Source: a virus. From it: a stretch of 64,000 bases of DNA. This document shows, one piece after another, positions 2,837 through 34,503 of the stretch. The translations under genes were made by a program, and so were the position numbers. The stretch lies in the UHGV virus genome UHGV-0066004; one strand, given 5' to 3'. Numbering within the stretch: position 1 is the stretch's first letter; every line of letters starts with the position of its first letter. The notes under the pieces were generated by a model. The model was given only the letters and a program-made list of their open reading frames with translations, had not been told where the DNA came from and did not search any database.

Positions 2837-3736
2837 ATGTCACAAGCAGATACAAGTTACAAAAATATCCTGAACCATGTTTTATCCGTTGGTGAACTGC
2901 GTACTACAAGAACTGGAGATGTTATCTCTGCATTTGCTCCACCACAGTTTCGTTTTGATATGCGTACTGGTTTCCCACTCTTAACATCTAAACAGGTGTT
3001 TACAAGGCAAGTTATTGGGGAAGCTTTATGGTTCCTGAACGGTGAGAATAAGCTTGGTGAACTTCGTTACCGTACTTGGGGTGAAAATGATGGGGAACGC
3101 TGGACTATCTGGTCAGATGATTTTAAACGCTGGTTAAGCTCTAACTATTCTTCTGAACAAGATTGGTTAGAGGATGCAGGTGGGAGAATCTACGGGGTTC
3201 AGTGGAGAAACTTTGAAGGTCATAATGGTTGTGTTGTAGACCAGTTAGAGACCTTAGTAACGAAGATGAAAGGTGATATCACAGACCGTTACATGCTTGT
3301 TAATGCTTGGAATGCAGCAGATATTGCAGCTAACTCAATGGCTTTAGCACCTTGTCATGTTCTGTTTCAGATTTATATCACTAACGAAGGTGAAGTTGAC
3401 TTACAATGGTATCAACGTTCTGTAGACACCTTTTTAGGACTTCCGTTTAACATTGCATCTTATGGTTTTATTCTGGAAGTTCTTTGCAAGATGACTGGAT
3501 ACACTCCACGATACTTGATAGGTGTCTTTGGAGATACTCAGATTTATCATAACCATATGAAGCAGGTCTATGAACTGATGAACAATGAAGAGTTTCATGC
3601 ACCTACTTTTGAGATTGGTGTACAGCTTAACACTTTAAGTGACTTAAAACATCTTACTGCAAGTGACTTTATTGGTGGAATTAACAACTACCAACATGCA
3701 GGGAAGATTGAAGCACCTCTGTCAGTAGGTAAGTAA
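2837..3736 (+). CDS. thyA: thymidylate synthase
   Basis: 299 aa; ThyA motifs ALAPCH (active-site Cys) and LGLPFNIASY. Confidence 0.85.
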   Translation: MSQADTSYKNILNHVLSVGELRTTRTGDVISAFAPPQFRFDMRTGFPLLTSKQVFTRQVIGEALWFLNGENKLGELRYRTWGENDGERWTIWSDDFKRWLSSNYSSEQDWLEDAGGRIYGVQWRNFEGHNGCVVDQLETLVTKMKGDITDRYMLVNAWNAADIAANSMALAPCHVLFQIYITNEGEVDLQWYQRSVDTFLGLPFNIASYGFILEVLCKMTGYTPRYLIGVFGDTQIYHNHMKQVYELMNNEEFHAPTFEIGVQLNTLSDLKHLTASDFIGGINNYQHAGKIEAPLSVGK

Positions 3737-3780: not shown

Positions 3781-4144
3781 CAGTATTCTTTGTGTTCTTC
3801 TCAGTAATAGCTTGCAAGGCTGATACTGATTGAGCCAGATTGTTCACACTGTCAGAGAATTTATCAAGAGTTTTGGTAAGTTTTGCGTTTTCACCCTTAA
3901 CGTTCTCTAACTGAACTTTCTGGTTCTCCATCCCTAGCTGAATCAGTCTCATGTCAGACTGTAAATCACGAATAGCTGAATAGTTACTTTTGGAATAATT
4001 ATCTAGCTGCTGTAACTTTGTTGTGACAGACACTTCTTGTTTACCACTTGAAACTTGCATCGTGGTATACATCCCAATAACACTAAAAATACCAACTACA
4101 ATTGCACCAATATTATTTTTAAAAGCTTCCTCTAGCCACTTCAT
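3773..4144 (-). CDS. hypothetical membrane-anchored coiled-coil protein
   Basis: 123 aa; N-terminal hydrophobic segment IGAIVVGIFSVIGMYTTM then coiled-coil-like sequence. Confidence 0.5.
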   Translation of the reverse strand: MKWLEEAFKNNIGAIVVGIFSVIGMYTTMQVSSGKQEVSVTTKLQQLDNYSKSNYSAIRDLQSDMRLIQLGMENQKVQLENVKGENAKLTKTLDKFSDSVNNLAQSVSALQAITEKNTKNTEK

Positions 4145-4339
4145 TTATTTCTCCCCCTTAAAAGCTTTTTCTAAGTTATCTACGAACTCATCATCAATAG
4201 GCGTGTCTGTTTTACTCGCAAGGTATCTTGCAAGCTTAAAGAACACTTTCTCAATCATGTATTCACTTAGAAGGGATAAAATGAGTTTCCAGAAGAAGCT
4301 ACCTAGATTTTTTAGAAGAATTGCTAGGATTGTAGGCAT
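4145..4339 (-). CDS. hypothetical small membrane protein
   Basis: 64 aa, hydrophobic N-terminus. Confidence 0.4.
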   Translation of the reverse strand: MPTILAILLKNLGSFFWKLILSLLSEYMIEKVFFKLARYLASKTDTPIDDEFVDNLEKAFKGEK

Positions 4340-4418
4340 TTAATCACCTCATCAGCCAAGATGGTGAGAATACCCATAAAGAATATTAACACCATCTTAA
4401 CAATCAGTCAATAAGGGA

Positions 4419-6812
4419 TTAAGCAGTTCTTACCCAAGCCATTAACTTGTAGAACTGGTTAGTAACACTAAATGCTGAACCAGAACCTGTACCACCAGTG
4501 TTACCACTAACTGTATGGGTGTGAGCACCAATACCTACAGAGTGGGTGTGAGCACCAGTGTTACTTGTAGTACCAGACCATGTGTGTGTATGGTTACCAG
4601 TCGTGTTAGTGTTAGGGAACTTGTTATCAGTTCTGTCAAGCCAGTCAAGAGTTCTCGTCTTGTTATTGCTAACAGTTGTATAACCGTACTGAGCATCACC
4701 ACCATTAACCAATAGCAGACCTAAGTGGTGAGCGTGGTTACCAGCAGCACTTGTTGTACCACTTACAGAGTGAGTATGACCACCAGTGCTATTAGTGCTC
4801 TTCGTACCATAATCAAAAGATGAAGTGGTAGCAGAGAAACTATGGGTGTGTGATGGTAAGTTACCAACAGCTAACGTCACAGAATCTGAACCACCTGTTG
4901 TAGCAACATCTGAACCGTTTGCTGCTGCAATTCTGATAGTTCTACCAACACCATTATTCAGGTACGTCCAAGTTAACCCAGGAAGTGCTGTATTGGGGTC
5001 AACATTACTGTTAAACCACGTTACAATACCTACTGGATAGATTTTATTCAGGTCTGTAGAGTCACTAATTGCTTCTGCAATCTTCTGGTCAGTTTCAGCT
5101 TTAGTGTATGCACCAATTTCTGAAGGGGTTGGTTTATCTTGGTCTGTATAGATTTTAGACCATGCCTTCTCAAAACCATACCCATCTCGTGCAGTCCTGT
5201 AAAAAACACCACCATTCCTGTAGATAAACTTAAACTGTGCAGATGGTGTTGAGCCACCACCAATAAACATCTGATAAACTAGTTGTGATGCACCCCCAGT
5301 TTTCATTGTAACATTATACAGACCAGTTCTAGCATTCCAAGCAATACCATCCCCATCACCAACCTCTGTACCATTGCCAGTAGAGATAGCATACATGTAC
5401 CTATAGTCTGCGGTAGATTGCGTGTAATATCTAGCATCTAAGTTAGAGAAATCAGAAGGTTGAACTTGACCAGTAATGGCTAAATTCTTATTCGCAACAA
5501 TTGCTGATGGTTCAAGGGCAATTTGAGTACCAGAGTAACTATTGTTTAAGGTTACCACATTAGAGTTTGGGCCACCTACACCTAACCACCACCTCGATAC
5601 GTTCGCGGTATCCACACCACGGATATATAGTGGTTGACCTTGTGTTAAGTTTTTTAATACTAAGCCTTCATTATTTGATACAATAGTCTGCACATTCACG
5701 AAAGTGTTAGACACATTAATCTTAGCAAGATTATTCAAAGTAGCTGCTGGAATGTATCTAGAGTCAATGTTAGTCCAATCAGATGGTTGAATTTGACCAG
5801 TGATTTTTACACTCTTGTTAAATGTAGCACCAGACGAGTTTAAGACAATTGAGGTATTGCCCTTGTAATCGTAAAATGTGATATTGTCATTTGCATCACC
5901 TTTACCGATATACCACAGATTATTGTTTTCAACATCTTTTGCTAGGATGAACAAAGACTCATTAACAGCTTTATTTTTTAGCATGATAGCAGCAGCATTA
6001 GAGCTAACACTAACATAGTTGCTGAAGGTGTTTAAACCACTAAAAGTGTTATTCGCAGTTAACTGTGCAAACCTATGATTAGCAACTGTCTGAGTGAAGT
6101 ATCTAGCATCTAAGTTAGAGAAGTCAGAAGGCTGAACTTGACCCATGACTCTTAGTGTCTTGTTAAATGACGCTGTTGCGTTAAGGATTAACATTGAGCC
6201 AGTGGCACGATTGTACAGATAAACATTAGTGTTGTTTGCATTTCTCTGTCCAACATACCACGTTTGCTGGTTATTAGCATCTCTACCCTGAATATATGAA
6301 GCTCCTGCATTAGTTGCTTTCTTAAGAGTTAACTGCTCACCATCAACGACAATTGCTTGCCTAATGTTGAAGTTATTTGTTACAGCCAACCTTGCATATC
6401 TTGCATCATTCTCTTTATTAGTTCTCATCCCAAGTTCATTAGGACTTGGTTTATTCAGAGTATGATAAACAGTTGCTGACCTTGAAGCATCTGCAATAGT
6501 TAGCCTAAGACCATTTGCGTTAATTTTAAAAGTCTTTAAAACATCCCCAATATTAATCTCAGAAGAGCCTGTTGGGTCAAATACTGCCTTACCACCATAA
6601 AGTAACTTAACAATCCCTAAGTCACCCGTCATAGTGCTACCAGCAATCTGAACAAATCTTTCAAGTTTAAAAGATGCTAAGAAGTCTTGATAGGTCATTC
6701 GACGGTCTTCATCACCCAGCATTTCAGGTCTCTTTTTAACTCTGACATGAAGAAGGTCATCTGAACGGATTGTATCGATTGAGTTTAACTCACTCAACTT
6801 GTAATCTGCCAT
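4419..6812 (-). CDS. tail fiber protein (large)
   Basis: 797 aa; three internal repeats of G-Q-[VI]-Q-P-S-D-[FW]-[ST]-N-[LI]-D-[AS]-R-Y; His-x-His-rich C-terminus; distal to baseplate genes. Confidence 0.8.
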
Positions 6813-6827
6813 TATAAATTTTCCTCT

Positions 6828-6850
6828 TAAAAGGGGCTATAAAGCCCCTG
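6828..6850 (-). terminator. stem-loop terminator candidate
   Basis: ggggct-ataa-agcccc hairpin with short U-run on minus strand after fiber gene stop. Confidence 0.45.
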
Positions 6851-6858
6851 TAAAGAAA

Positions 6859-8046
6859 TTAAGCTGTTCTCTGCCATACATACAGTACGAATGATGGCTG
6901 CTCAATGTTGAAAGCTTGTCCACCACCAACACTGTTAGTGTTTCCGCTATGTGTATGCTCAGAAGAAGAAACTGTCACAGTACCGTTGTGTGTATGTGAA
7001 CCAATACCAACTGTATGGCTATGAGCACCAATACCCACTGTGTGATTGTGGTTACCAGTTGTGTTAGTGGTAACGCTAAAAGAGTGGGTGTGCGAACCAG
7101 CGACTTCGCAGACAGCATCTGCTGAGTACCACGATTGGTCATTCCTTGTAGACCAAACCATTGCAGGTCTTTCCGATAAACCACCACCTGATTCATAGGT
7201 CAATCTGTGGTTATGAGCACCAGCAGAACTTGTTGACCCACTACCAACATGGTTATGGTTACCAGTTGTGTTAGTGGTCTTAGTTCCATAGTCAAAAGAG
7301 TTGGTAGTCTTAGTTCCATAGTCAAAAGCTGAAATTGACATAGTTGCATTATGAGCATGACCACCACCACTAAGAGACACAGAGTGTGAGTGTTGTGGCA
7401 TATTATTAACTGACAAAGTGACAGTTGAAGCACCAAATACAGAGCCTGCTGGTCTTGTATCAGAGTCATAACCAACCAATGCTCTACCTTTTGAAACTAA
7501 CTCCCAAGTTCCTCCACAAATTAAATACGTAGAAGGGTTTGCAGAGTTCATGGAAAGATGGATAGTACCTACTGGATAAGAAGCCTGAACAGCCTTGTAC
7601 AAGTTATTTACTGCTCTTGCTGTAGCATATTTATCTGCATCTTCGTTATAAAGGTTCGATGTTGTCCAGTTCTGGACATTGCGCAACCCTACCTGTGCCT
7701 TAGTTGTATTGTGTGGGTTGCTCTTGTCCTGAATATGCTGTTGAACAAGATTATTAACCTCTTCTGAAGACATAATCTGTAGATTTGCTCTTGCCTGAGC
7801 TACATTAGTAACGTCTGATAAGTTATTTGCAGCAACTAACTGAAGAGCATTAATAACATTATCTAAACCAATTTGTGTTTTAGTAACACCATGAGGGTTA
7901 TTTCTTAGGCTTGAGTGTGGAGCAAGTAATTGCTCAAGAGTACACCTCTTATCCTCAATACCCTGCTTAAGATGGAAGATATCACTAAGGTCAATTGGTA
8001 AGGCTGCTTGAGGCAAGGCACTAATTTGAATTTCACCTACTGCCAT
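6859..8046 (-). CDS. tail fiber protein (second)
   Basis: 395 aa; C-terminal HxH motifs similar to the 797-aa fiber; duplicated SFDYGTKTTN segment. Confidence 0.75.
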   Translation of the reverse strand: MAVGEIQISALPQAALPIDLSDIFHLKQGIEDKRCTLEQLLAPHSSLRNNPHGVTKTQIGLDNVINALQLVAANNLSDVTNVAQARANLQIMSSEEVNNLVQQHIQDKSNPHNTTKAQVGLRNVQNWTTSNLYNEDADKYATARAVNNLYKAVQASYPVGTIHLSMNSANPSTYLICGGTWELVSKGRALVGYDSDTRPAGSVFGASTVTLSVNNMPQHSHSVSLSGGGHAHNATMSISAFDYGTKTTNSFDYGTKTTNTTGNHNHVGSGSTSSAGAHNHRLTYESGGGLSERPAMVWSTRNDQSWYSADAVCEVAGSHTHSFSVTTNTTGNHNHTVGIGAHSHTVGIGSHTHNGTVTVSSSEHTHSGNTNSVGGGQAFNIEQPSFVLYVWQRTA

Positions 8047-27775: not shown

Positions 27776-27851
27776 TGGAGAATCCGAAGGGACTCGAACC
27801 CTTATAAACCTGTTTTGCAGACAGGCACATAGCCATTTCTGTCACGGATTC
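27776..27851 (-). tRNA. tRNA-Cys (GCA)
   Basis: manual cloverleaf; acceptor GAATCCG/CGGATTC, anticodon loop CTGCAAA, CCA encoded. Confidence 0.75.
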
Positions 27852-27855
27852 AAAT

Positions 27856-27948
27856 TGGAGGAAGATACCAGACTTGAACTGGTACACCGATTTCTCAGCT
27901 ACTGGCAGTTTAGCAAACTGCTCCCTTACCTTTTAGGGTTAATCTTCC
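27856..27948 (-). tRNA. tRNA-Ser (GCT), type II
   Basis: 93 nt with long variable arm; anticodon loop TTGCTAA. Confidence 0.7.
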
Positions 27949-27950
27949 AT

Positions 27951-28685
27951 TTATTTCTGTAATGCGTTCTTCATTTCTGGTGTTGCAATAGTGTCAATTA
28001 CACCAGTTTTACAAGCATCATCAAACCAGTCTGGTAAGATACCTGCTAAGAACCCATTGATATTCGTTTTAAGGTACTCTGCAATAAGGGCAGCTTCTTC
28101 TTCAATCATCTGCACAACTTCATCTGCATAAGCTGTAATCTTTGAGATACCTTCATTAATCTTACTGACAGCTTGGTTAGCTAAATCAGAAACAGTATCA
28201 AGACCCTTGTCAATAGCGTCTTGTAAGTCACTTAATACATCGTTAACACTCTCTAGTGTACTGTTAATCGTATCAATAGCTTTTTGACCATATTCTGTAG
28301 CAACACCCATAATACCACTGAACGGTGTACAACCAACTTGTTCTCCTGCTGCACCCATAACATTGGAATATCCCTTTGCTACCTGCATACGTGATGAAAA
28401 CTCATCAATAGATTTTTGACCGTAGTCTGTCAGGGTCTTAGTAGTTGCTGTAGTGCTTGTAAGGCTTGTTGTAAAGCTGTTTAGAAGGACTGTTGTAAGT
28501 CCAGCAGCAACAAGCTTATCCTTTACTGTAGGGTCTGATACAGAGCTAATAGAGCTTACAAGTGATGTAGAGGCAGCTACGGTTCCACCGAGAACTGCTG
28601 CACCAGTAATAAGGGGGTTAGAAAACCCTTTACCGGTTTTTAAGAGATTGAAAATCTCCTTACCTTGTTCTGTCATCTCTTTCAT
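27951..28685 (-). CDS. hypothetical protein inside tRNA array
   Basis: track ORF 27951..28748 trimmed to internal Met (MKEMTEQ) because its 5' end overlaps a tRNA. Confidence 0.5.
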   Translation of the reverse strand: MKEMTEQGKEIFNLLKTGKGFSNPLITGAAVLGGTVAASTSLVSSISSVSDPTVKDKLVAAGLTTVLLNSFTTSLTSTTATTKTLTDYGQKSIDEFSSRMQVAKGYSNVMGAAGEQVGCTPFSGIMGVATEYGQKAIDTINSTLESVNDVLSDLQDAIDKGLDTVSDLANQAVSKINEGISKITAYADEVVQMIEEEAALIAEYLKTNINGFLAGILPDWFDDACKTGVIDTIATPEMKNALQK

Positions 28686-28703
28686 TAAGCACCTTTGAAA
28701 TTG

Positions 28704-28778
28704 GTAGTCCAGTGGGATTTGAACCCTCTTCTCATGTTTTTCAGACACGCGCTTTAACCATATAAGCTACTTGGACTA
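28704..28778 (-). tRNA. tRNA-Phe (GAA)
   Basis: acceptor TAGTCCA/TGGACTA perfect; anticodon loop CTGAAAA. Confidence 0.7.
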
Positions 28779-28783
28779 TAAAT

Positions 28784-28859
28784 TGGGGTGACCTACGGGA
28801 TTTGAACCCGTATAGACCATGTTCACAGCATGGGTCATTACCGTTTATGATAAGGCCAC
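28784..28859 (-). tRNA. tRNA-His (GTG)
   Basis: anticodon stem CCATG/CATGG, loop CTGTGAA. Confidence 0.7.
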
Positions 28860-28890
28860 ATTTAAGGACTCTCGTAAGAATCCTTAGAAG

Positions 28891-28966
28891 TGGCAGCGGC
28901 ATAAGGATTTGAACCTTAATAAGACAGCTTCAGAGACTGCTGCATTGCCAGTTATGCTATGCCGCT
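28891..28966 (-). tRNA. tRNA-Gln (CTG), tentative
   Basis: acceptor AGCGGCA/TGCCGCT; anticodon loop CTCTGAA with G-U closed stem. Confidence 0.6.
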
Positions 28967-28971
28967 AAATT

Positions 28972-29050
28972 TGGTACTCCATATCGGATTCGAACCGATA
29001 CATAACACAGATTTTAAGTCTGGCCTCTCTGCCAATTGGAGTAATGGAGC
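28972..29050 (-). tRNA. tRNA with Leu anticodon TAA, atypical short variable arm
   Basis: 79 nt; T-arm ATCGG-TTCGAAT-CCGAT; loop CTTAAAA; A73. Confidence 0.55.
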
Positions 29051-29052
29051 AT

Positions 29053-29128
29053 TGGCGGGGGATGTTGGAATTGAACCAACTTCTTCGATTTCAAAGACCG
29101 AGGTTTTAACCTTGTAAACTAATCCCCT
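29053..29128 (-). tRNA. tRNA-Gln (TTG)
   Basis: anticodon stem TCGGT/ATCGA, loop CTTTGAA. Confidence 0.65.
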
Positions 29129-29136
29129 TTAAATCT

Positions 29137-29694
29137 TTACTTTCTCAGTGGATGAATAAAGAATGCCAACATAACTCTTTCCCTTGAGAATGCTCTTTCT
29201 TCTGGGACAACACTTTTTAGTTTCCATCCAATATAAATTCTCCAGTAAAATTGTTTACCAAAGATTTTAATTGATGGGATAAAAGCGAATAATCCCCAAG
29301 CATTACTGTTCCACATTAGGAGATAACCTGTCTGATTATCTTCAGGGTCAGAACTTACGTTGATATTACCTTTCCACTTAGTAACATCTTTTACATCTCT
29401 TCCTAATACATGGTAAGAGAAGTTATAAGCTTTGTTTCTCCAGAGCCATCCGACTCTTTGCATGTAGACACCTAGTTTACCAATCCATCTGATATTAGCC
29501 CATCTTTTAACGTGACCTTCATCACCATCAATTGGGTTGTCATATGTCTCCATCCATCTGAACCCGAAAGGTAAGTGTCCTTTCTTCTCACTGTAGAATG
29601 GAACTACGAAAGGTGCTAAGATAACTGCTAGTATTGCTGCAAGTGGTTCTAGCAAAGCTAAGAAAATCCATGAAGCATATTTTAAGTATCTCAT
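29137..29694 (-). CDS. hypothetical membrane protein
   Basis: 185 aa; hydrophobic N-terminus, Trp-rich. Confidence 0.5.
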   Translation of the reverse strand: MRYLKYASWIFLALLEPLAAILAVILAPFVVPFYSEKKGHLPFGFRWMETYDNPIDGDEGHVKRWANIRWIGKLGVYMQRVGWLWRNKAYNFSYHVLGRDVKDVTKWKGNINVSSDPEDNQTGYLLMWNSNAWGLFAFIPSIKIFGKQFYWRIYIGWKLKSVVPEERAFSRERVMLAFFIHPLRK

Positions 29695-29933
29695 TGTCTA
29701 ACCCTCGTAAGGAGGTAAGCATTATTACTTGTTTCTGAGCTTTCTGGTAACATTGTCTCAAAATTGACACTTTTAAGTTGTCTTCCACCAAAGCAATGAC
29801 CAATAAATCTTTCTACTTTTATTGGGTCGCATTCCCATCCGACTTTTAAGAAAATGTGGGTATCTATAGTGGGAACCCTTACAAACTCAATACTATTGGG
29901 ATTTTCATGTTCAACGACGATTAATGTTTGCAT
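29691..29933 (-). CDS. hypothetical protein
   Basis: 80 aa, start-coupled to downstream ORF. Confidence 0.45.
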   Translation of the reverse strand: MQTLIVVEHENPNSIEFVRVPTIDTHIFLKVGWECDPIKVERFIGHCFGGRQLKSVNFETMLPESSETSNNAYLLTRVRQ

Positions 29934-29941
29934 AAATTCCT

Positions 29942-30017
29942 CTTGCTTATCTGGCGCAGGATAAGGGATTCGAACCCCTATTAACAGTTTCGTAGACTGT
30001 TGCTCTATCCATTTGAA
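29942..30017 (-). tRNA. tRNA-Arg (ACG)
   Basis: acceptor GCAGGAT/ATCCTGC; D-arm GTTC-AAATGGATA-GAGC; loop CTACGAA. Confidence 0.75.
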
Positions 30018-30022
30018 CTAAT

Positions 30023-30100
30023 CCTGCAAAATTGGTGTTCCAAGACGGATTCGAACCGTCACTAATACAAGGTTTGAGCTTGCATCCTCTGCCAATTGGG
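30023..30100 (-). tRNA. tRNA with Leu anticodon CAA, atypical short variable arm
   Basis: 78 nt; anticodon stem GCAAG/CTTGT, loop CTCAAAC; A73. Confidence 0.55.
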
Positions 30101-30101
30101 A

Positions 30102-30176
30102 TACTGGAACATGGTACTCACTAAAGGACTTGAACCTTTTTCTTCATCTTGTAAGGGTGGTGTTTTACCATATAAA
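30102..30176 (-). tRNA. tRNA-like, anticodon tentatively TAC (Val), weak anticodon stem
   Basis: good acceptor, D-arm and T-arm; anticodon stem only 3 of 5 pairs. Confidence 0.45.
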
Positions 30177-30276
30177 CTAAGCGAGTGTGAAAGAGGTCTG
30201 AAGTTGTGCCGCTAACTCAACTCCGTGGAATTTGTTACGGTCTTCAGTTGACACCAGCGGTCTTTCACTTGACCTC
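30176..30276 (-). ncRNA. structured RNA candidate (non-tRNA) within tRNA array
   Basis: terminal complementarity AGAGGTC...GACCTCT and internal CUGAAGACCG motifs related to the Y-RNA-like family. Confidence 0.3.
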
Positions 30277-30348
30277 TGAATTGGTGCTGCTCACAGGACT
30301 CGAACCCGCATTTCCATCCTTACAAGGGATGTGTAATAGCCAATTATA
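30272..30348 (-). tRNA. tRNA-Thr (TGT)
   Basis: anticodon stem CATCC/GGATG, loop CTTGTAA. Confidence 0.7.
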
Positions 30349-30355
30349 CGAAAGC

Positions 30356-30430
30356 AGCATTAATTTGGAGCATCCAGAGGGAATCGAACCCTCAACCTCA
30401 GTTTGGAAGACTGTAATTTTCCCGTTTAAA
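30356..30430 (-). tRNA. tRNA-Gly (TCC)
   Basis: acceptor GCATCCA/TGGATGC; loop CTTCCAA. Confidence 0.7.
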
Positions 30431-30436
30431 CTATGG

Positions 30437-30512
30437 ATGCACTAATTGGTGGAGAAGCAGGGAATTGAACCCTGTACTTAAGTTTGCAAAACTTATGTTT
30501 TAACCATGTAAA
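30437..30512 (-). tRNA. tRNA-Ala (TGC)
   Basis: anticodon stem TAAGT/ACTTA, loop TTTGCAA; T-arm CAGGG-TTCAATT-CCCTG. Confidence 0.7.
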
Positions 30513-30518
30513 CTACAT

Positions 30519-30594
30519 CCCCAATGTATGGTACAGGTGGAGGGAATTGAACCCATCGTCTTACTGATTAAGAGTCAGCCGCATAACCATTTTG
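30519..30594 (-). tRNA. tRNA-Lys (CTT), tentative
   Basis: anticodon stem GCTGA/TCAGT, loop CTCTTAA; weak T-stem. Confidence 0.55.
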
Positions 30595-30601
30595 CTACAC
30601 C

Positions 30602-30679
30602 TGCATTAATTTGGTAGGAGACAAGGGATTCGAACCCTCAAACACCAACTTCTAAGGATGGTAGGTTTACCAATTACCG
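30602..30679 (-). tRNA. tRNA with Leu anticodon TAG, atypical short variable arm
   Basis: 78 nt; T-arm GAGGG-TTCGAAT-CCCTT; loop CTTAGAA; A73. Confidence 0.5.
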
Positions 30680-30756
30680 TCAATCTCCCATTAAATCTTT
30701 TTAGAGAACTTCTAAGAACCTAAGCAACAAGGTTCCACAACAAGCTGTAATAACCT

Positions 30757-30783
30757 TAGAAGCCCTCTAAAAAGACCTAAAAA
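30757..30783 (-). terminator. stem-loop terminator candidate inside tRNA array
   Basis: aaagacc-loop-ggtcttt palindrome with U-run on minus-strand reading. Confidence 0.4.
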
Positions 30784-30937
30784 GGTCTTTGCATAGTCTT
30801 GTTTAATCCGGTGACTAGAACCTTTGGAGAGCTTGATATTATCTCTTCTCCGTGACACATACTAGGTGCTTTACTGTGCTTGTACGACAATACACGAGGG
30901 ATACCAAAGCAACATCCGAATGAAGCTTGGCTTTAAA

Positions 30938-31025
30938 CCTTATTAGGCGGTAAGTAAAGGAGTCGAACCCTCACCGTATCTCTACAGTGGCAACTGTTTT
31001 CAAGACAGTTTGGCTACCATTAGCC
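30938..31025 (-). tRNA. tRNA-Ser (TGA), type II
   Basis: 88 nt, long variable arm; anticodon stem ACTGT/ACAGT, loop CTTGAAA. Confidence 0.7.
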
Positions 31026-31038
31026 GCTACCTACCCCT

Positions 31039-31121
31039 AATAAGACTTTGGCATGGGACGGAGGAGTTGAACCCCTTTGAAACGGTTTTGGAGGCCGTTG
31101 CTCATGCCTTAGAGTCTTAAC
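31039..31121 (-). tRNA. tRNA-like, anticodon tentatively CCA (Trp), extended D region
   Basis: perfect acceptor ATGGGAC/GTCCCAT; loop CTCCAAA; about 7 extra nt in D region. Confidence 0.45.
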
Positions 31122-31263
31122 ATCGTCCCATATTATAATTCGAAGCTTACCGTATTATCTCAACACTGTAAAGCCCCTTCTCAGATTATTTACATGTTCT
31201 GGAAAACATGAGATACAGACCACCTCCCTACAGGAAGACCCGCTTAGGTCGTCTAAGTAATCT

Positions 31264-31340
31264 GCTAACTAATTGGCACACCCTACAGGATTCGAACCTG
31301 TAACTAACGATTTAGAAGACCGTTGCTCTATCCAATTGAA
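31264..31340 (-). tRNA. tRNA-Arg (TCT)
   Basis: D-arm GTTC-AATTGGATA-GAGC; loop CTTCTAA. Confidence 0.75.
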
Positions 31341-31587
31341 CTAAGGGTGCATTAATCTTTAAAGACTCTCTTAGAAAGCCCTTAAAGATGCCCACCTTAT
31401 TAATCATACCGTGGGCTAGTACGCCAAATTCTTTGATGAGGGATTGGAAGACCTCACTGGTGTTTAGCCTATCAAGCTACTGCCAGAAAAACATTGTCGT
31501 TTGCATTTATTTTAAATTTGCAAAATAGACGCTACGCAACGAAAACTAAGGTTACTATAAAGTAGTCACATCTCAATGTCAACAACT

Positions 31588-31663
31588 TTATTGAAATTGG
31601 TACTGGTAGGTGGAATCGAACCACCGATGTTCCCTTATCAGGGGAGTGTTATAACCTTCTTAA
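31588..31663 (-). tRNA. tRNA-Ile (GAT)
   Basis: T-arm GGTGG-TTCGATT-CCACC; loop CTGATAA. Confidence 0.7.
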
Positions 31664-31664
31664 C

Positions 31665-31741
31665 TATACCAGCTTGGAGGTTCAGATGGGAATCGAACCC
31701 ACATTCATAGGGCTTATGAGACCCTTGCATTACCTTATCTG
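31665..31741 (-). tRNA. tRNA-Met (CAT)
   Basis: perfect acceptor GGTTCAG/CTGAACC; loop CTCATAA. Confidence 0.7.
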
Positions 31742-31745
31742 CGAC

Positions 31746-31821
31746 TGAACCATATTGGTAGAAGTGGAGGGATTCGAACCCATCGCCTGTCAGATTAAAA
31801 GTCTGCTGCATCACCATTCTG
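31746..31821 (-). tRNA. tRNA-Lys (TTT)
   Basis: T-arm GGGTTCGAATCCC; loop CTTTTAA. Confidence 0.7.
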
Positions 31822-31825
31822 CTAC

Positions 31826-31969
31826 ACTTCCATTAAATTATCTTTGTAGATAAGCTACCCAGACTTGCTTAAGGTCTGTAGCGATGTGCCTTGTTGGGTT
31901 TAAATCTAGAATTTACCCTTTCACCCTTTGTGGTCGCATACTCACAGGTAAGCTTAATAACTTATCTAC
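31826..31969 (-). ncRNA. structured RNA candidate closed by a 19-bp perfect inverted repeat
   Basis: aattatctttgtagataag at 31826-31844 is the exact reverse complement of 31951-31969; internal CCAGAC/GTCTGG hairpin; no convincing ORF. Confidence 0.4.
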
Positions 31970-31970
31970 A

Positions 31971-32102
31971 AAGATAATTACCAGACCGTTGTTTATCATC
32001 TTAAGTGCTACCATTACACCAACTCGACATCTGCCGAGTGAAGGAATCGAACCTTCGCCTTTTCTTTACCGGAGAAATAGATTGTTTAAGTTTTGCTGTA
32101 AA
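31971..32102 (-). ncRNA. Y RNA-like (YrlA-type) candidate: circularly permuted tRNA-like module closed by a bulged terminal helix
   Basis: minus strand reads 5' CAGAAGACCG ... T-arm GAAGG-TTCGATT-CCTTC, acceptor 3' strand ACTCGGC, AGAT loop, acceptor 5' strand GTCGAGT, TG, D-arm GTGT-AATGGTA-GCAC ... AACGGTCTGG 3'; ends pair with AAG bulge; no anticodon arm. Confidence 0.55.
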
Positions 32103-32115
32103 CGGTCTTCTGTAA

Positions 32116-32188
32116 ATTTGTTGAGCCAGACCAAGTTTAAATTTTCAAAATTAAATTGGCTTGAAATTTCATACGTTCTTGCTGTATT
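32116..32188 (-). ncRNA. Y RNA-like helix element (no tRNA-like module)
   Basis: same closing helix (CAGAAGACCAA ... TTGGTCTGG) around an AT-rich hairpin. Confidence 0.4.
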
Positions 32189-32249
32189 TGGTCTTCTGCT
32201 CCTTTAAAGGATACTCGTAAGGACCCTTTAAGGGAGGGGCTAAATAGCC

Positions 32250-32327
32250 CTCTCAAAATTGGCGGTTACGAAGGGATTTGAACCCTCATCATCTCCCGTG
32301 ACAGGGGAGTATTTTAACCAAATTAAA
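32250..32327 (-). tRNA. tRNA-Asp (GTC)
   Basis: perfect anticodon stem CTCCC/GGGAG, loop CTGTCAC. Confidence 0.75.
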
Positions 32328-32332
32328 CTACA

Positions 32333-32420
32333 TAACCTTTATTGGTGTGCCGTGTAGGAGTCGAACCTACCGAGTCTCAATGACAAGGGATTTACAGTCC
32401 CCACCGCTACCATCTACGGG
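32333..32420 (-). tRNA. tRNA-Tyr (GTA), type II
   Basis: 88 nt with long variable arm; loop CTGTAAA. Confidence 0.7.
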
Positions 32421-32429
32421 ATAACGACA

Positions 32430-32506
32430 CATTTAAATTTGGCGGTTAGTCAGGGATTCGAACCCTGTGCCATTCGCTTAACAGGCGACCGCACATACCT
32501 TATATG
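32430..32506 (-). tRNA. tRNA-Asn (GTT)
   Basis: T-arm CAGGG-TTCGAAT-CCCTG; loop CTGTTAA. Confidence 0.65.
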
Positions 32507-32517
32507 CTTCCTAACCT

Positions 32518-32577
32518 TAATACATTGCCAGACCGTGTTTTTTCTTTTATCCGCAAAAAGTATTTTGTTGCTGAATA
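32518..32577 (-). ncRNA. Y RNA-like helix element
   Basis: closing helix GCAGAAGACCGT ... ACGGTCTGGC with 3-nt bulge. Confidence 0.4.
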
Positions 32578-32583
32578 CGGTCT

Positions 32584-32660
32584 TCTGCAAAATTGGAGGC
32601 GGGTGCAGGAGTCGAACCTGCCGATACCATGCTAATGAGACATGTGAGACGCCCTTTCTC
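32584..32660 (-). tRNA. tRNA (CAT); Met/Ile2 type, 1-72 mismatch
   Basis: loop CTCATTA; acceptor TGCGGGT/ACCCGCC with T1-C72 mismatch. Confidence 0.55.
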
Positions 32661-32671
32661 TATACCCGCAA

Positions 32672-32743
32672 TTCTCAATGACCAGACCAAATATCTTCTT
32701 TGTCCGATTTCGTGTCAGATGAGTAGATTAAGTTTGCTGTAAT
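32672..32743 (-). ncRNA. Y RNA-like helix element
   Basis: closing helix CAGAAGACCAATT ... ATTTGGTCTGG. Confidence 0.4.
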
Positions 32744-32750
32744 TGGTCTT

Positions 32751-32828
32751 CTGTCAAAACTGGCGTTCCAGAAGGGATTTGAACCCTCAGATATCCACTT
32801 TGAAAGAGTGGTGACTTTACCATTTTGT
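32751..32828 (-). tRNA. tRNA-Glu (TTC)
   Basis: perfect acceptor GTTCCAG/CTGGAAC; anticodon stem CCACT/AGTGG, loop CTTTCAA. Confidence 0.75.
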
Positions 32829-32835
32829 CTACTGG

Positions 32836-32912
32836 AACATTAATTTGGTCTCTGTTGGAGGACTTGAACCTCCGGCCTTACCGCCCCAAACGGAACGCTC
32901 TACCAAGCTGAG
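32836..32912 (-). tRNA. tRNA-Pro (TGG)
   Basis: D-arm GCTC-AGCTTGGTA-GAGC; T-arm GGAGG-TTCAAGT-CCTCC; loop TTTGGGG. Confidence 0.7.
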
Positions 32913-33087
32913 CTAAACAGAGATAAACTTTTCAAACTCTATGTAACCACTTTAACATTATTTTTTAGTGGTTGTCAAGAACTTTTTTAAAATATTTTTC
33001 AGTATCTTAGAAAAGCTCTCGTTTCGTTTCTATGTAGAACATATTAAAGGGTATCAAACACATTGTCAATACCCTTTTTAAAACTTT

Positions 33088-34503
33088 TTACCAGATATAA
33101 CGGTCAATCATTACTGCTTTGAGCATTACACTGATTGGGTCAAACTTCTCACCACCAAGCAGAGCTTTTAAAGTAGCTGGAGAAAAACCAGATACCATTG
33201 CTACACCGTTATCCTTAACAGACACTTCGCAAGTACCATTACGGTTTGCTAAGTACCAGAATACCAGTTGAGGCATTTCGTATCCAGCTTTTTTGTACTT
33301 ACTCTGAATTGCTTCAAAGTTTGTACGACCGTTAGCTCCATCAACCTGATTGAACTCCATATCGGAGAAGATGATAAGCTTACTTGGCATATCTTTCTGA
33401 GTCAAGTTGTTTCTTTTACCTGTTTCAAGAATACGGTCAAAAGCTGCTTGTAAGTTAGTTGAGCCATATTCAACGTGTCGCATCACCTGACGATGACGGT
33501 TTCGTAAATCACCACTCAGTTCGATGAAGTGAGGGTTTGTTGAATAAACCATCAACTCATTCTTAAAGCAACCTGTATTACGTTCTGCTACATACAATGC
33601 AAGTGAAACACCAATATCAAGAGCAGTAATTGAACCAAAATTCACCCAAGACATTGAGCTTGAAACATCAGACATACACAAGATGTTTTCACCCTCTGCC
33701 ATCCAGTTTGGTAGTGCTTTCCACTGCTCATTAGCAACATCTGCATTACCATACTTAACAGATTTAATTACATCGTATGGGTAAACAGCACCAGCATTAA
33801 TCTTAGTCTCACCCTTTGATAAGGACTCGATGTAAGCTTTGTAGCGTTCTCCATCTTTGCGGTTAAACAGTTTTTGGTAACGTGCAGCAGCAAGTGAAGG
33901 AATCTTACTGTAGTCAATCTTACCAAACTCATTAGCAGAGATTTTTTGCTCAACTGTATCAGATAGTGCAGACAACAGTGTGCGGTACTCTTTCTCACTC
34001 AAGTTGGCAAACTTGCAGAAACGTTTTACAAACTGCTTATGACGTGGTTTGACTCGTGGTAACCACTTAGCCGCCAAACCTGCTGTTGCAGGGTCTAGTA
34101 ATGCTGCTTCTAGATGTTTGAAGGCATCTGTCTCGAAACAAGTACCTACGAAGATTTTGAAGTCATCAAAACGACCAAGTTCTGCAATCTTATCCATAAT
34201 GCGAAGAACCTGCGTAGGCTCTAAAACTTTGTCTTCAATCGCTTGAAGTAAAACAGTTCTGAAGGCTTTACGCTCACCCATACCTTCTCGTACATCTCGC
34301 ATATGAAGCAAAATACGAACTGCAACATCAACATCCTCACGCAAAGCTTTGTAGAACAGGTCTGGTAAGATTTCTACGTTGCTACGGCTTGAACCAGCAG
34401 CTTTGTAAAAGTCTACAAGAGCAGACATTGATGAAGTATGGTTTACAGCACCATTTTCAGTTCGACCTGCATGAAGGTGCGCATGTTTAAATAATTCGCT
34501 CAT
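33088..34503 (-). CDS. vWA-domain protein, candidate Ro60 (TROVE)-like RNA-binding protein
   Basis: 471 aa; C-terminal vWA with complete MIDAS set (DVSSS, GST, FSD); N-terminal ~270 aa helical domain of TROVE-like size; adjacent to tRNA/Y-RNA-like array. Confidence 0.6.
   Translation of the reverse strand: MSELFKHAHLHAGRTENGAVNHTSSMSALVDFYKAAGSSRSNVEILPDLFYKALREDVDVAVRILLHMRDVREGMGERKAFRTVLLQAIEDKVLEPTQVLRIMDKIAELGRFDDFKIFVGTCFETDAFKHLEAALLDPATAGLAAKWLPRVKPRHKQFVKRFCKFANLSEKEYRTLLSALSDTVEQKISANEFGKIDYSKIPSLAAARYQKLFNRKDGERYKAYIESLSKGETKINAGAVYPYDVIKSVKYGNADVANEQWKALPNWMAEGENILCMSDVSSSMSWVNFGSITALDIGVSLALYVAERNTGCFKNELMVYSTNPHFIELSGDLRNRHRQVMRHVEYGSTNLQAAFDRILETGKRNNLTQKDMPSKLIIFSDMEFNQVDGANGRTNFEAIQSKYKKAGYEMPQLVFWYLANRNGTCEVSVKDNGVAMVSGFSPATLKALLGGEKFDPISVMLKAVMIDRYIW

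Follow-up and report, generated by a model that had tools for sequence, protein, structure and literature searches.

The transfer RNA (tRNA) gene array of Felix O1-like phages has been known from publications since the Felix O1 genome was described, and many records annotate it. The closest described systems are the clusters of the Felixounavirus and Mooglevirus phages (Whichard et al. 2010, PMC3185647; wV8, PMC2674420; Sf14, PMC12482277), with published counts of 22-26 tRNAs for 19 amino acids (PMC3185647, PMC2674420, PMC12482277), including 22 tRNAs in Felix O1 by tRNAscan-SE, two of them called pseudo (PMC3185647), and 23 in wV8 (PMC2674420). Dense one-strand clusters with small open reading frames (ORFs) and stable RNAs between the tRNAs are also found in T5, T4, the mycobacteriophages of cluster C and jumbo phages, where the proposed roles are codon supply and the replacement of degraded or cleaved host tRNAs. 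Here, we analyzed a 64,000-nucleotide stretch of the virus genome UHGV-0066004 (hereafter, the window), whose minus strand carries such an array at 27776-32922, located between a Ro60-like gene and the terminase genes. This region very probably belongs to a Felix O1-like myovirus (Ounavirinae, Felixounavirus) as its island of tRNA genes, and it is best regarded as a general RNA cassette of the phage. What is new beyond the known array is a tryptophan tRNA-like gene, four small RNAs linked to the Ro60-like gene, and a tag RNA without a tRNA-like domain. We give roughly even chances to the fuller reading, in which the island, besides its tRNAs, also holds the RNA partners of the phage's Ro60 homolog, forming an undescribed family that has its anatomy in common with the dictyostelid Class I RNAs, together with a tRNA-Trp and the tag RNA.

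Sequence comparison placed the locus firmly among its relatives. A 5.7-kb stretch matched 352 phage records, 231 of which have one place covering at least 80% of it, with the best identities at 96-97%; the named records among these matches of at least 80% coverage are all Felix O1-like phages of Escherichia, Salmonella, Shigella, and Citrobacter. The published Felixounavirus/Mooglevirus clusters share 95-97% DNA identity with the window as well as the gene order, the anticodons, and the flanking Ro60-like and terminase genes. The annotation of phage KhF1 lists the same 26 tRNAs in the same order with a terminase gene downstream, the gene order is also that of FSL SP-012, VpaE1, and Felix O1, and the island layout is common to Felix O1, Mordin, Sf13, and Arno18. 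The sampled records carry no annotation for the Trp-like gene, the four small RNAs, or the tag RNA, save for one 'tRNA-Thr' placed over the fourth small RNA; at the spot of the Trp-like gene, 40 records sampled across the ranking have nothing annotated except 'hypothetical protein'. In contrast, the arrays of T5, T4, cluster C, and the jumbo phages are unrelated in sequence, and the island described here differs from them in having a Ro60-like gene at its head and putative partner RNAs interleaved with its tRNA genes. The Felix O1 array differs from that of the window by three HNH homing-endonuclease genes that interrupt it between tRNA genes (3012-3497, 3985-4377, and 5295-5708 in the numbering of the Felix O1 locus, L009) and that both the window and KhF1 lack; this difference marks the array as a hot spot for the gain and loss of mobile endonucleases.

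ARAGORN identified 26 tRNA genes for 19 amino acids, all on the minus strand at 27776-32922 and none elsewhere in the window. Ser, Gln, Arg, Lys, and the anticodon CAU have two genes each and Leu has three, while the other amino acids, apart from Trp, are served by a single gene. Twenty-four of them pass the Rfam tRNA model RF00005 at its gathering score of 29 bits, with scores of 33-65 bits, and all but one encode the CCA end. That one, tRNA-Ser(UGA), is the sole tRNA among the 26 with a 3' CCU instead of CCA, and repair by the host CCA-adding enzyme would therefore be needed. A preliminary description of this DNA, made by manual folding, had proposed about 27 tRNAs in a dense minus-strand array apparently covering all 20 amino acids. 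Its count was borne out, as 26 genes were recovered by ARAGORN with the anticodons it had listed and a 27th (CCA) is supported by covariation; however, ARAGORN missed this last candidate even at a relaxed threshold, so that automated tools cover 19 amino acids and the 20th is reached only if the Trp-like RNA works. Several of its coordinates were exactly 10 nt too low: the Val-UAC gene lies at 30112-30186, the CCA candidate at 31049-31131, and one CAU gene at 32594-32670, and the array ends at 32922 rather than 32912.

The 27th gene (31049-31131, minus strand, with its CCA anticodon at 31089-31091) was aligned across eight phages and examined for covariation; its conservation extends over Felixounavirus, Mooglevirus, and the Pectobacterium phage Arno18. 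Its cloverleaf consists of the acceptor stem AUGGGAC/GUCCCAU, the D stem CUC/GAG, the anticodon stem AACGG/CCGUU, and the T stem GGGG/CCUC. All 152 sequence-by-pair cells (19 pairs in eight phages) form standard pairs, and two-sided, compensatory changes were observed in 8 of the 19 pairs, with at least one in each of the four helices, whereas sliding the structure by 1-3 columns left 0 compensatory pairs. In the anticodon stem, for instance, the AACGG/CCGUU of the window is replaced by GUAAG/CUUAC in phages of the Moogle group and by GUAGG/CCUAC in Arno18. The 7-nt anticodon loop CUCCAAA retains CCA, U33, and A37 in all eight phages, and the gene carries A1-U72, the discriminator G73, and an encoded CCA end. 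We take A1-U72, G73, and the CCA anticodon to be the elements by which tryptophanyl-tRNA synthetase (TrpRS) recognizes E. coli tRNA-Trp. The roughly seven extra nucleotides in the D region, to which the preliminary description had drawn attention, proved to be an invariant 7-nt insertion, UGUUAAG, between position 9 and the D stem. Taken at the level of sequence, these features lead us to read the element as a selected, tRNA-shaped RNA derived from tRNA-Trp and as a candidate for charging.

Several observations weigh against a working tRNA. The gene was missed by ARAGORN in the window and in six relatives, and it falls below the Rfam gathering score, with 23 bits to the tRNA-Sec model. The anticodon loop is closed by a C31.A39 mismatch, and the connector between the acceptor and D stems is 9 nt long compared with 2 nt in tRNAs, which departs from the standard geometry. 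Since the element fails both finders and carries the C31.A39 mismatch and the 9-nt connector, it may not be a working tRNA. A stricter alternative would be that it is a decaying pseudogene and that the array is just the published set of 26 tRNAs for 19 amino acids, to which the failure of both finders, the C.A mismatch adjoining the anticodon loop, and an irregular acceptor 3' strand in the Arno18 copy would lend themselves. We regard decay as improbable, since the eight compensatory pair changes spread across all four helices, and neither the anticodon loop core nor the insertion varies among Felixounavirus, Mooglevirus, and Arno18, both of which argue for selection on the fold. A selected, tRNA-Trp-derived RNA is thus the reading that we retain.

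At the head of the island, the minus-strand gene at 33088-34503 encodes a 471-residue protein with Pfam matches to DUF2828 and DUF7788 only. Neither a single-sequence search of the PDB nor NCBIfam returned a match for this protein; at the sequence level, no TROVE/Ro60 match was found, and a profile search reached Ro60 only at E-values of 0.5-1. Structural comparison was far more informative. An AlphaFold model built from 42 homologs, with a mean predicted local distance difference test score (pLDDT) of 86, was compared with the PDB by Foldseek, and the 11 best matches were all Ro60/TROVE structures aligned over their full length (E-values of 8e-8 to 7e-6, TM up to 0.62), including Xenopus and human Ro60, Deinococcus Rsr, and the Ro60 of Thermus phage phiLo. 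The protein is thus predicted to adopt a full-length Ro60 fold composed of a HEAT-repeat ring plus a von Willebrand factor A (vWA) domain. This result agrees with the description of its homolog gp130 in phage Bas63 as Ro60-like (PMC11482910). Papers mentioning DUF2828 offered nothing relevant here. To place the gene in a wider context, 80 viral contigs encoding DUF2828 homologs were fetched, 75 of them at only 38-47% identity. About 35 of the 80 carry tRNA genes on the same strand within 6 kb of the DUF2828 homolog, and 5 carry an ARAGORN-called transfer-messenger RNA (tmRNA) within the same distance.

In described Ro60 (Rsr)/Y RNA systems (Chen et al. 2014, PMC4201824; Yrl1/Yrl2 of Thermus phage phiLo, PMC12135203), small RNAs lie on the same strand beside a Ro60-fold gene, and the same arrangement was found here. 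The preliminary description had treated the spacers between the tRNA genes as incidental, a view that does not hold, as they contain four small RNAs of a Ro60-linked family and a tmRNA-like tag RNA. The spacers thus hold a second layer of Y-RNA-like modules beside the Ro60-like gene. The coding strand carries four copies of a 28-nt repeat (repeat family D13), each of which starts a small-RNA module that consists in the window of AAG, a stem strand of 7-8 bp, UU(A/U)CAGCAA, a variable part, the complementary strand, and GG. In the wider family, the anatomy is AAG, a covarying terminal stem of 6-9 bp, UUACAGCAA, a variable or YrlA-like insert, the 3' strand, and CUG. Some differences from the described systems are evident: the window's protein matches DUF2828/DUF7788 and not Pfam TROVE as in bacterial and phage Ro60, the conserved motif of its RNAs is UUACAGCAA as opposed to CGAA in YrlA, and its small RNAs are scattered among tRNA genes.

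The distribution of these modules was assessed with a covariance model, R1, built from 15 short modules with unrelated stems and searched against both strands of 936 kb. Every one of the 66 matches at an E-value of at most 1 lies on the strand of the DUF2828 gene, and about 54 of 63 matches in the loci fall within 600 nt of the ends of that gene, compared with about 10% expected by chance (our own count). At least one match was found in well over half of the 75 distant loci, many of them outside the training set, and many of the matching loci lack any tRNAs. In line with this pattern, the 9-mer TACAGCAAA occurs within 1.5 kb downstream of the DUF2828 gene in 17 of the 75 distant contigs, and ACAGCAA occurs 160 times on the gene strand versus 58 times on the other across the DUF2828 contigs. 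The covariation count of the short modules is biased, as the modules were chosen for having a stem, and the unbiased support therefore comes from the strand and position of the R1 matches. In the window, all on the minus strand, R1 matched copy 1 (32682-32750) with 35.8 bits (E-value of 2.9e-4) and copy 3 (32126-32195) with 30.2 bits (E-value of 0.005), both outside the training set, while copy 2 (32528-32584), with 53.6 bits, belongs to that set. Together, these sequence patterns suggest that the four Ro60-linked small RNAs belong to a widespread and apparently undescribed family.

The fourth copy (31981-32109, minus strand) lies about 1 kb downstream of the Ro60-like gene on the same strand and resembles YrlA. 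It has the same terminal stem and UUACAGCAA frame as copies 1-3, and within this frame lie a hairpin, a T arm, an acceptor-like stem of 7 bp capped by a tetraloop, and a D arm, which is the order of elements in YrlA (a terminal stem, then a variable hairpin, the T arm, a closed acceptor-like stem, and the D arm; PMC4201824). In the alignment of its relatives (A2), pairing is kept at 98% over 27 pairs. Three pairs of the capped stem display compensatory changes, and this stem can differ throughout its sequence and still pair (ACUCGGC/GUCGAGU in the window versus ACCCUUC/GAAGGGU in Mordin). The YrlA 5' motif GNCGAAN0-1G is not fully present, as GCAGAAG or ACAGAAG stands in its place and agrees at 6 of 7 positions at best (for GCAGAAG). 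No match to the Rfam YrlA model (RF02553, gathering score of 69 bits) was found in the window at an E-value of up to 10, and copy 4 gave a partial match of 22 bits to the Rfam tRNA model. Likewise, no Rfam family reaches its gathering score on any Y-like module, nor does YrlA in 11 distant loci. Several distant family members, like copy 4, enclose a YrlA-like tRNA mimic, and in one distant locus (L084), three long modules match Rfam YrlA over its full length with 25-39 bits (E-values of 4e-6 to 0.04), below that same gathering score. As a side observation, the record of phage REP7 (GenBank OQ174506), in the region matching 31985-32205 of the window, has a 'tRNA-Thr' annotated where copies 3 and 4 lie; this annotation most likely covers the YrlA-like copy 4, whose hairpin and T arm automated finders would take for the 3' two-thirds of a tRNA.

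Of the Rfam families, only RF01414 aligned to the short modules; it represents the Dictyostelium Class I RNA and has the consensus GaUcuC-CUUACAGCAA-(AU-rich)-GagAuC-UG. Class I RNAs are about 60 nt long, start with AAG, end with CUGU, and possess a covarying 6-bp terminal stem with an 11-nt motif next to its 5' strand; they have been reported absent outside Dictyostelia (Kjellin et al. 2021, PMC7919456). Full-length alignments to the model scored 24.0 bits for copy 2, 17.5 bits for copy 1, and 24.4 bits (E-value of 0.02) for a module of a distant locus (L078), all below the gathering score of 41.5 bits. The aligned spans are 32529-32582 and 32683-32748 in the window, 5888-5943 in L078, and 7937-7991 in L084. 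Both groups of RNAs share the AAG start, a paired terminal stem of 6-7 bp that is variable in sequence, CUUACAGCAA immediately following the 5' strand, a variable and AU-rich middle part, and a CUG(U) end. Copies 1-3 display the Class I anatomy in their AAG start, terminal stem, motif, and length of about 60 nt, with the window copies ending in CUGG. The differences are nonetheless clear: the alignment scores remain at 17-24 bits, the modules come from phages of bacteria and the Class I RNAs from amoebae, the modules lack the Dictyostelium upstream sequence element (DUSE) promoter of Class I genes, and the published protein partner of Class I RNA is Rnp1A, a protein with an RNA recognition motif (RRM) (PMC7919456). 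By analogy, the shared anatomy and motif raise the idea that Class I RNAs, instead of being an invention of amoebae alone, may act as Y-RNA-like ligands for proteins of the DUF2828 type, whether through homology or convergence.

The presence of tRNA mimics within the island bears on how its other unusual tRNA-shaped genes are to be read. Some of them could, instead of serving translation, bind the Ro60-like protein or host enzymes as ligands or decoys, in which case the true working set would cover 19 amino acids; the Trp-like RNA and the YrlA-like copy 4 would be candidates for this, perhaps along with the weak Met and Tyr genes. The acceptor-like stem of copy 4 is closed by a loop and cannot be charged as it stands, the Trp-like RNA combines an invariant 7-nt insertion with its failure in both tRNA finders, YrlA RNAs, whose genes adjoin those of Ro60, are known to mimic tRNAs (PMC4201824), and the Bas63 study itself raised the possibility of Y RNAs among the 'tRNA genes' (PMC11482910). 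However, the Trp-like RNA keeps its 7-bp acceptor stem free and has G73, an encoded CCA end, and an invariant CCA anticodon with U33 and A37, none of which a pure protein ligand would need. It also lacks the Y-like family's terminal stem and UUACAGCAA frame, as the covariance model gave no match there. We therefore consider the ligand or decoy explanation rather unlikely, at perhaps one chance in a few, and continue to treat the Trp-like gene as a candidate tRNA and the four small RNAs as candidate partners of the Ro60-like protein.

A further unannotated element, the tag RNA, occupies 31351-31547 on the minus strand and was recognized by matches to the Rfam tmRNA models, all of which score below gathering. 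Its frame at 31469-31504 (GCA AAC GAC AAU GUU UUU CUG GCA GUA GCU UGA UAG) encodes ANDNVFLAVA followed by two stops, has no start codon, and lies behind an internal promoter match (31554-31582). Ahead of the first tag codon, the sequence agrees with the Rfam tmRNA consensus, and a covarying hairpin follows the tag. Further occurrences of the element were found in Ounavirinae, in Kuttervirus phages of roughly 157 kb, and in a few contigs of other sizes, with the corresponding loci at 31351-31582 of the window (minus strand), 2380-2640 of locus L090, and 6820-7120 of locus L128. Five tag variants were found (ANDNVFLAVA, ANDNAFLAVA, ANDNTFLAVA, ANDNAYLAVA, and ANDQTFLAVA); because they differ mostly by synonymous changes, and an overlapping ATG frame is not conserved, the tag appears to be under selection at the level of the peptide. 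The E. coli tmRNA tag is ANDENYALAA. The start-codon-less frame and the phage tag ANDN(V/A/T)(F/Y)LAVA followed by a stop, close to the E. coli tag, thus liken the element to tmRNA (SsrA). In contrast to tmRNA, including its two-piece and permuted forms, no tRNA-like domain (alanine-type acceptor stem and T arm) was found beside the tag RNA in the window or in the Kuttervirus loci.

Three other interpretations of this region were rejected. A two-piece (permuted) tmRNA composed of copy 4 and the tag RNA, as called by ARAGORN in Mordin, conflicts with copy 4 being closed by its own terminal stem, with its acceptor-like stem being loop-capped and devoid of a G3.U70 pair, and with the three tRNA genes and the promoter that lie between the two pieces. 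An Rfam permuted-tmRNA match at 31472-31656 borrows the T arm of tRNA-Ile and lacks an acceptor segment, and was taken as real for the tag part only. A small protein, MQTTMFFWQ, starting from an ATG that overlaps the tag was dismissed, as neither the ATG nor its frame is conserved in Kuttervirus, whereas the tag frame is.

The decoding capacity of the array was examined against the 68 long ORFs of the window, whose GC content at third codon positions (GC3) is 0.325. The 27 anticodons comprise one U34 tRNA for each of seven family boxes, together with ACG for Arg. Under strict wobble rules, the set reads 76% of the window's codons, while four-way wobble at U34 would in principle allow 60 of the 61 sense codons to be read, missing only CGG (0.03% of the window's codons). 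Given the single U34 tRNA per family box, we infer that the array follows the plan of a minimal complete decoding set and not that of a few codon-bias supplements, which fits autonomy in a formal sense. A codon/tRNA comparison has been published for Felix O1 (PMC3185647). Independence in practice is a different matter. The commonest family-box codons end in U (GGT makes up 66% of Gly and GTT 45% of Val) and have no Watson-Crick-matched tRNA in the phage, Gly-UCC would not normally read GGT or GGC and would need superwobble for GGT, and the tRNA genes of the sister phage Bas63 are mostly non-essential on four laboratory E. coli strains (PMC11482910); all of these speak against an autonomous array. 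The structural weakness of Val-UAC and Met-CAU counts against the reading of the island as a whole. Full independence from host tRNAs is thus doubtful, owing to the unmatched top family-box codons and the superwobble that Gly-UCC would need for GGT, and any benefit of the tRNAs would be conditional, since the Bas63 knockouts were mostly neutral. In a computational study of the Moogle-like phage Sf14, support of late-gene translation was favored and nuclease escape was argued against (PMC12482277). The most likely function is a conditional benefit, through codon supply late in infection and/or the replacement of lost host tRNAs. The preliminary description had suggested translation autonomy or resistance to host tRNA-targeting nucleases; its near-complete set is supported, as is completeness if the Trp-like RNA works, while the functional part is a plausible suggestion on which the published evidence from Bas63 and Sf14 is mixed, so that the interpretation as a whole is partly supported.

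A specifically defensive version of this idea would hold that the array mainly replaces host tRNAs cut by anticodon nucleases (of the PrrC, PARIS, retron, or VapC type) and that its near-completeness reflects the breadth of nuclease attacks rather than codon usage. The coverage of every amino acid, and not just of phage-preferred codons, and the unusual U37 in the anticodon loop of Met-CAU would fit such a role. However, the loop of tRNA-Lys(UUU) is CUUUUAA, presumably identical to that of the host, and the literature examined contains no nuclease assay for this phage group. The dispensability of the tRNAs on laboratory strains is what a conditional counter-defence predicts, and the island-head gene counters the defence system ppl in Bas63 (PMC11482910); moreover, anticodon-nuclease-resistant phage tRNAs have been reported for mycobacteriophages, as cited in the Sf14 study (van den Berg 2023, in PMC12482277). 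In Sf14 itself, in contrast, anticodon-loop differences were found in about half of the tRNAs, and nuclease escape was judged unlikely for its host (PMC12482277). On balance, we hold counter-defence as the main role of the array to be unlikely, if worth keeping in view, and prefer the broader conditional benefit.

The island would be expressed through host-type promoters. The three best sigma-70-type matches on the coding strand lie at its head and inside it: TTGACA-17-TAATAT upstream of the array (33069-33041), TTGACA-18-TAAAGT with a TG extension (32978-32949), and the internal TTGACA-17-TATAGT (31582-31554), which agrees at 11 of 12 positions. Transcribed early by the host polymerase, the island would yield long precursors, which host RNase P and 3' processing enzymes would presumably cut into tRNAs. 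The phage tRNAs would then add to or replace the host pool during translation of the AT-rich genome, chiefly in the late phase of infection or once the host's own tRNAs have been depleted or cleaved.

In the direction of transcription, the array opens with tRNA-Pro (UGG; 32846-32922, 57.7 bits in Rfam) and tRNA-Glu (UUC; 32761-32838), followed, beyond copy 1, by tRNA-Met (CAU; 32594-32670). This last gene scores 28.5 bits, just below the Rfam cut-off of 29, and carries a U1.C72 mismatch, U73, U37, and 3 nt between the acceptor and D stems. The 1-72 mismatch, which the preliminary description had reported, is visible in the ARAGORN drawing and is kept, together with U73 and U37, in all relatives checked (as U.C, or A.C in Arno18). 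A 1-72 mismatch is a hallmark of initiator tRNAs; the three G-C pairs of initiator anticodon stems are absent from this gene. Beyond copy 2 lie tRNA-Asn (GUU; 32440-32516), tRNA-Tyr (GUA; 32343-32430), and tRNA-Asp (GUC; 32260-32337). The tRNA-Tyr gene has a long variable arm, matches in Rfam only the tRNA-Sec model (29.6 bits), and was listed as a pseudo-tRNA in the Felix O1 paper (PMC3185647). Copies 3 and 4 are followed by tRNA-Lys (UUU; 31756-31831), a second CAU gene (31675-31751) that ARAGORN calls Met and the KhF1 annotation calls tRNA-Ile (CAU), tRNA-Ile (GAU; 31598-31673), and, on the far side of the tag RNA, tRNA-Arg (UCU; 31274-31350). The Trp-like gene precedes tRNA-Ser (UGA; 30946-31035), after which come tRNA-Leu (UAG; 30612-30689), tRNA-Lys (CUU; 30529-30604), tRNA-Ala (UGC; 30447-30522), tRNA-Gly (UCC; 30366-30440), tRNA-Thr (UGU; 30282-30358), tRNA-Val (UAC; 30112-30186), tRNA-Leu (CAA; 30033-30110), and tRNA-Arg (ACG; 29952-30027). 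For tRNA-Val, the ARAGORN drawing agrees with the earlier finding of only 3 of 5 anticodon-stem pairs. The remaining genes are tRNA-Gln (UUG; 29053-29128), tRNA-Leu (UAA; 28972-29050), tRNA-Gln (CUG; 28891-28966), tRNA-His (GUG; 28784-28859), tRNA-Phe (GAA; 28702-28777), tRNA-Ser (GCU; 27856-27948), and the final gene of the array, tRNA-Cys (GCA; 27776-27851). All of these tRNA genes are on the minus strand, as called by ARAGORN and, with the exceptions given for Met and Tyr, by Rfam.

The three protein ORFs and structured RNAs that had been described as interspersed among the tRNA genes are present, likewise on the minus strand. The ORFs encode 244 residues matching DUF7217 (27951-28685), 185 residues matching DUF7338 (29137-29694), and 80 residues with no family match (29691-29933), the last of which is annotated as a coding sequence in VpaE1 (VpaE1_ev035). 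Several spacers fold far better than shuffled sequence, as judged by fold z-scores. These include a conserved 144-nt multi-branch element with a closing stem of 22-24 bp (31836-31979, inverted repeat I2, z-score of -6.6), a conserved long hairpin of about 90 nt (30691-30780, inverted repeat I1, z-score of -5.5 over 30690-30790), and a third structured spacer (30187-30281, z-score of -3.0). In addition, a three-copy family of hairpins of about 25 nt, of the UUUAAGGNNUCU...AAAG type, stands at the boundaries of tRNA groups (28861-28885, 31358-31382, and 32204-32228) and may represent processing or termination signals.

For the biology of these phages, a non-canonical tRNA-Trp, if true, would turn the published '19 amino acids' into a complete set of 20 and would offer a natural example of a tRNA that accommodates seven extra nucleotides ahead of the D stem. 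For the Ro60-like gene, which counters ppl in Bas63, there are now four specific candidate partner RNAs, which replace the vague suggestion that some of the tRNAs may be Y RNAs and make the mechanism testable. Beyond phages, the likeness to Class I RNAs provides a testable idea on what an abundant class of eukaryotic RNA may do.

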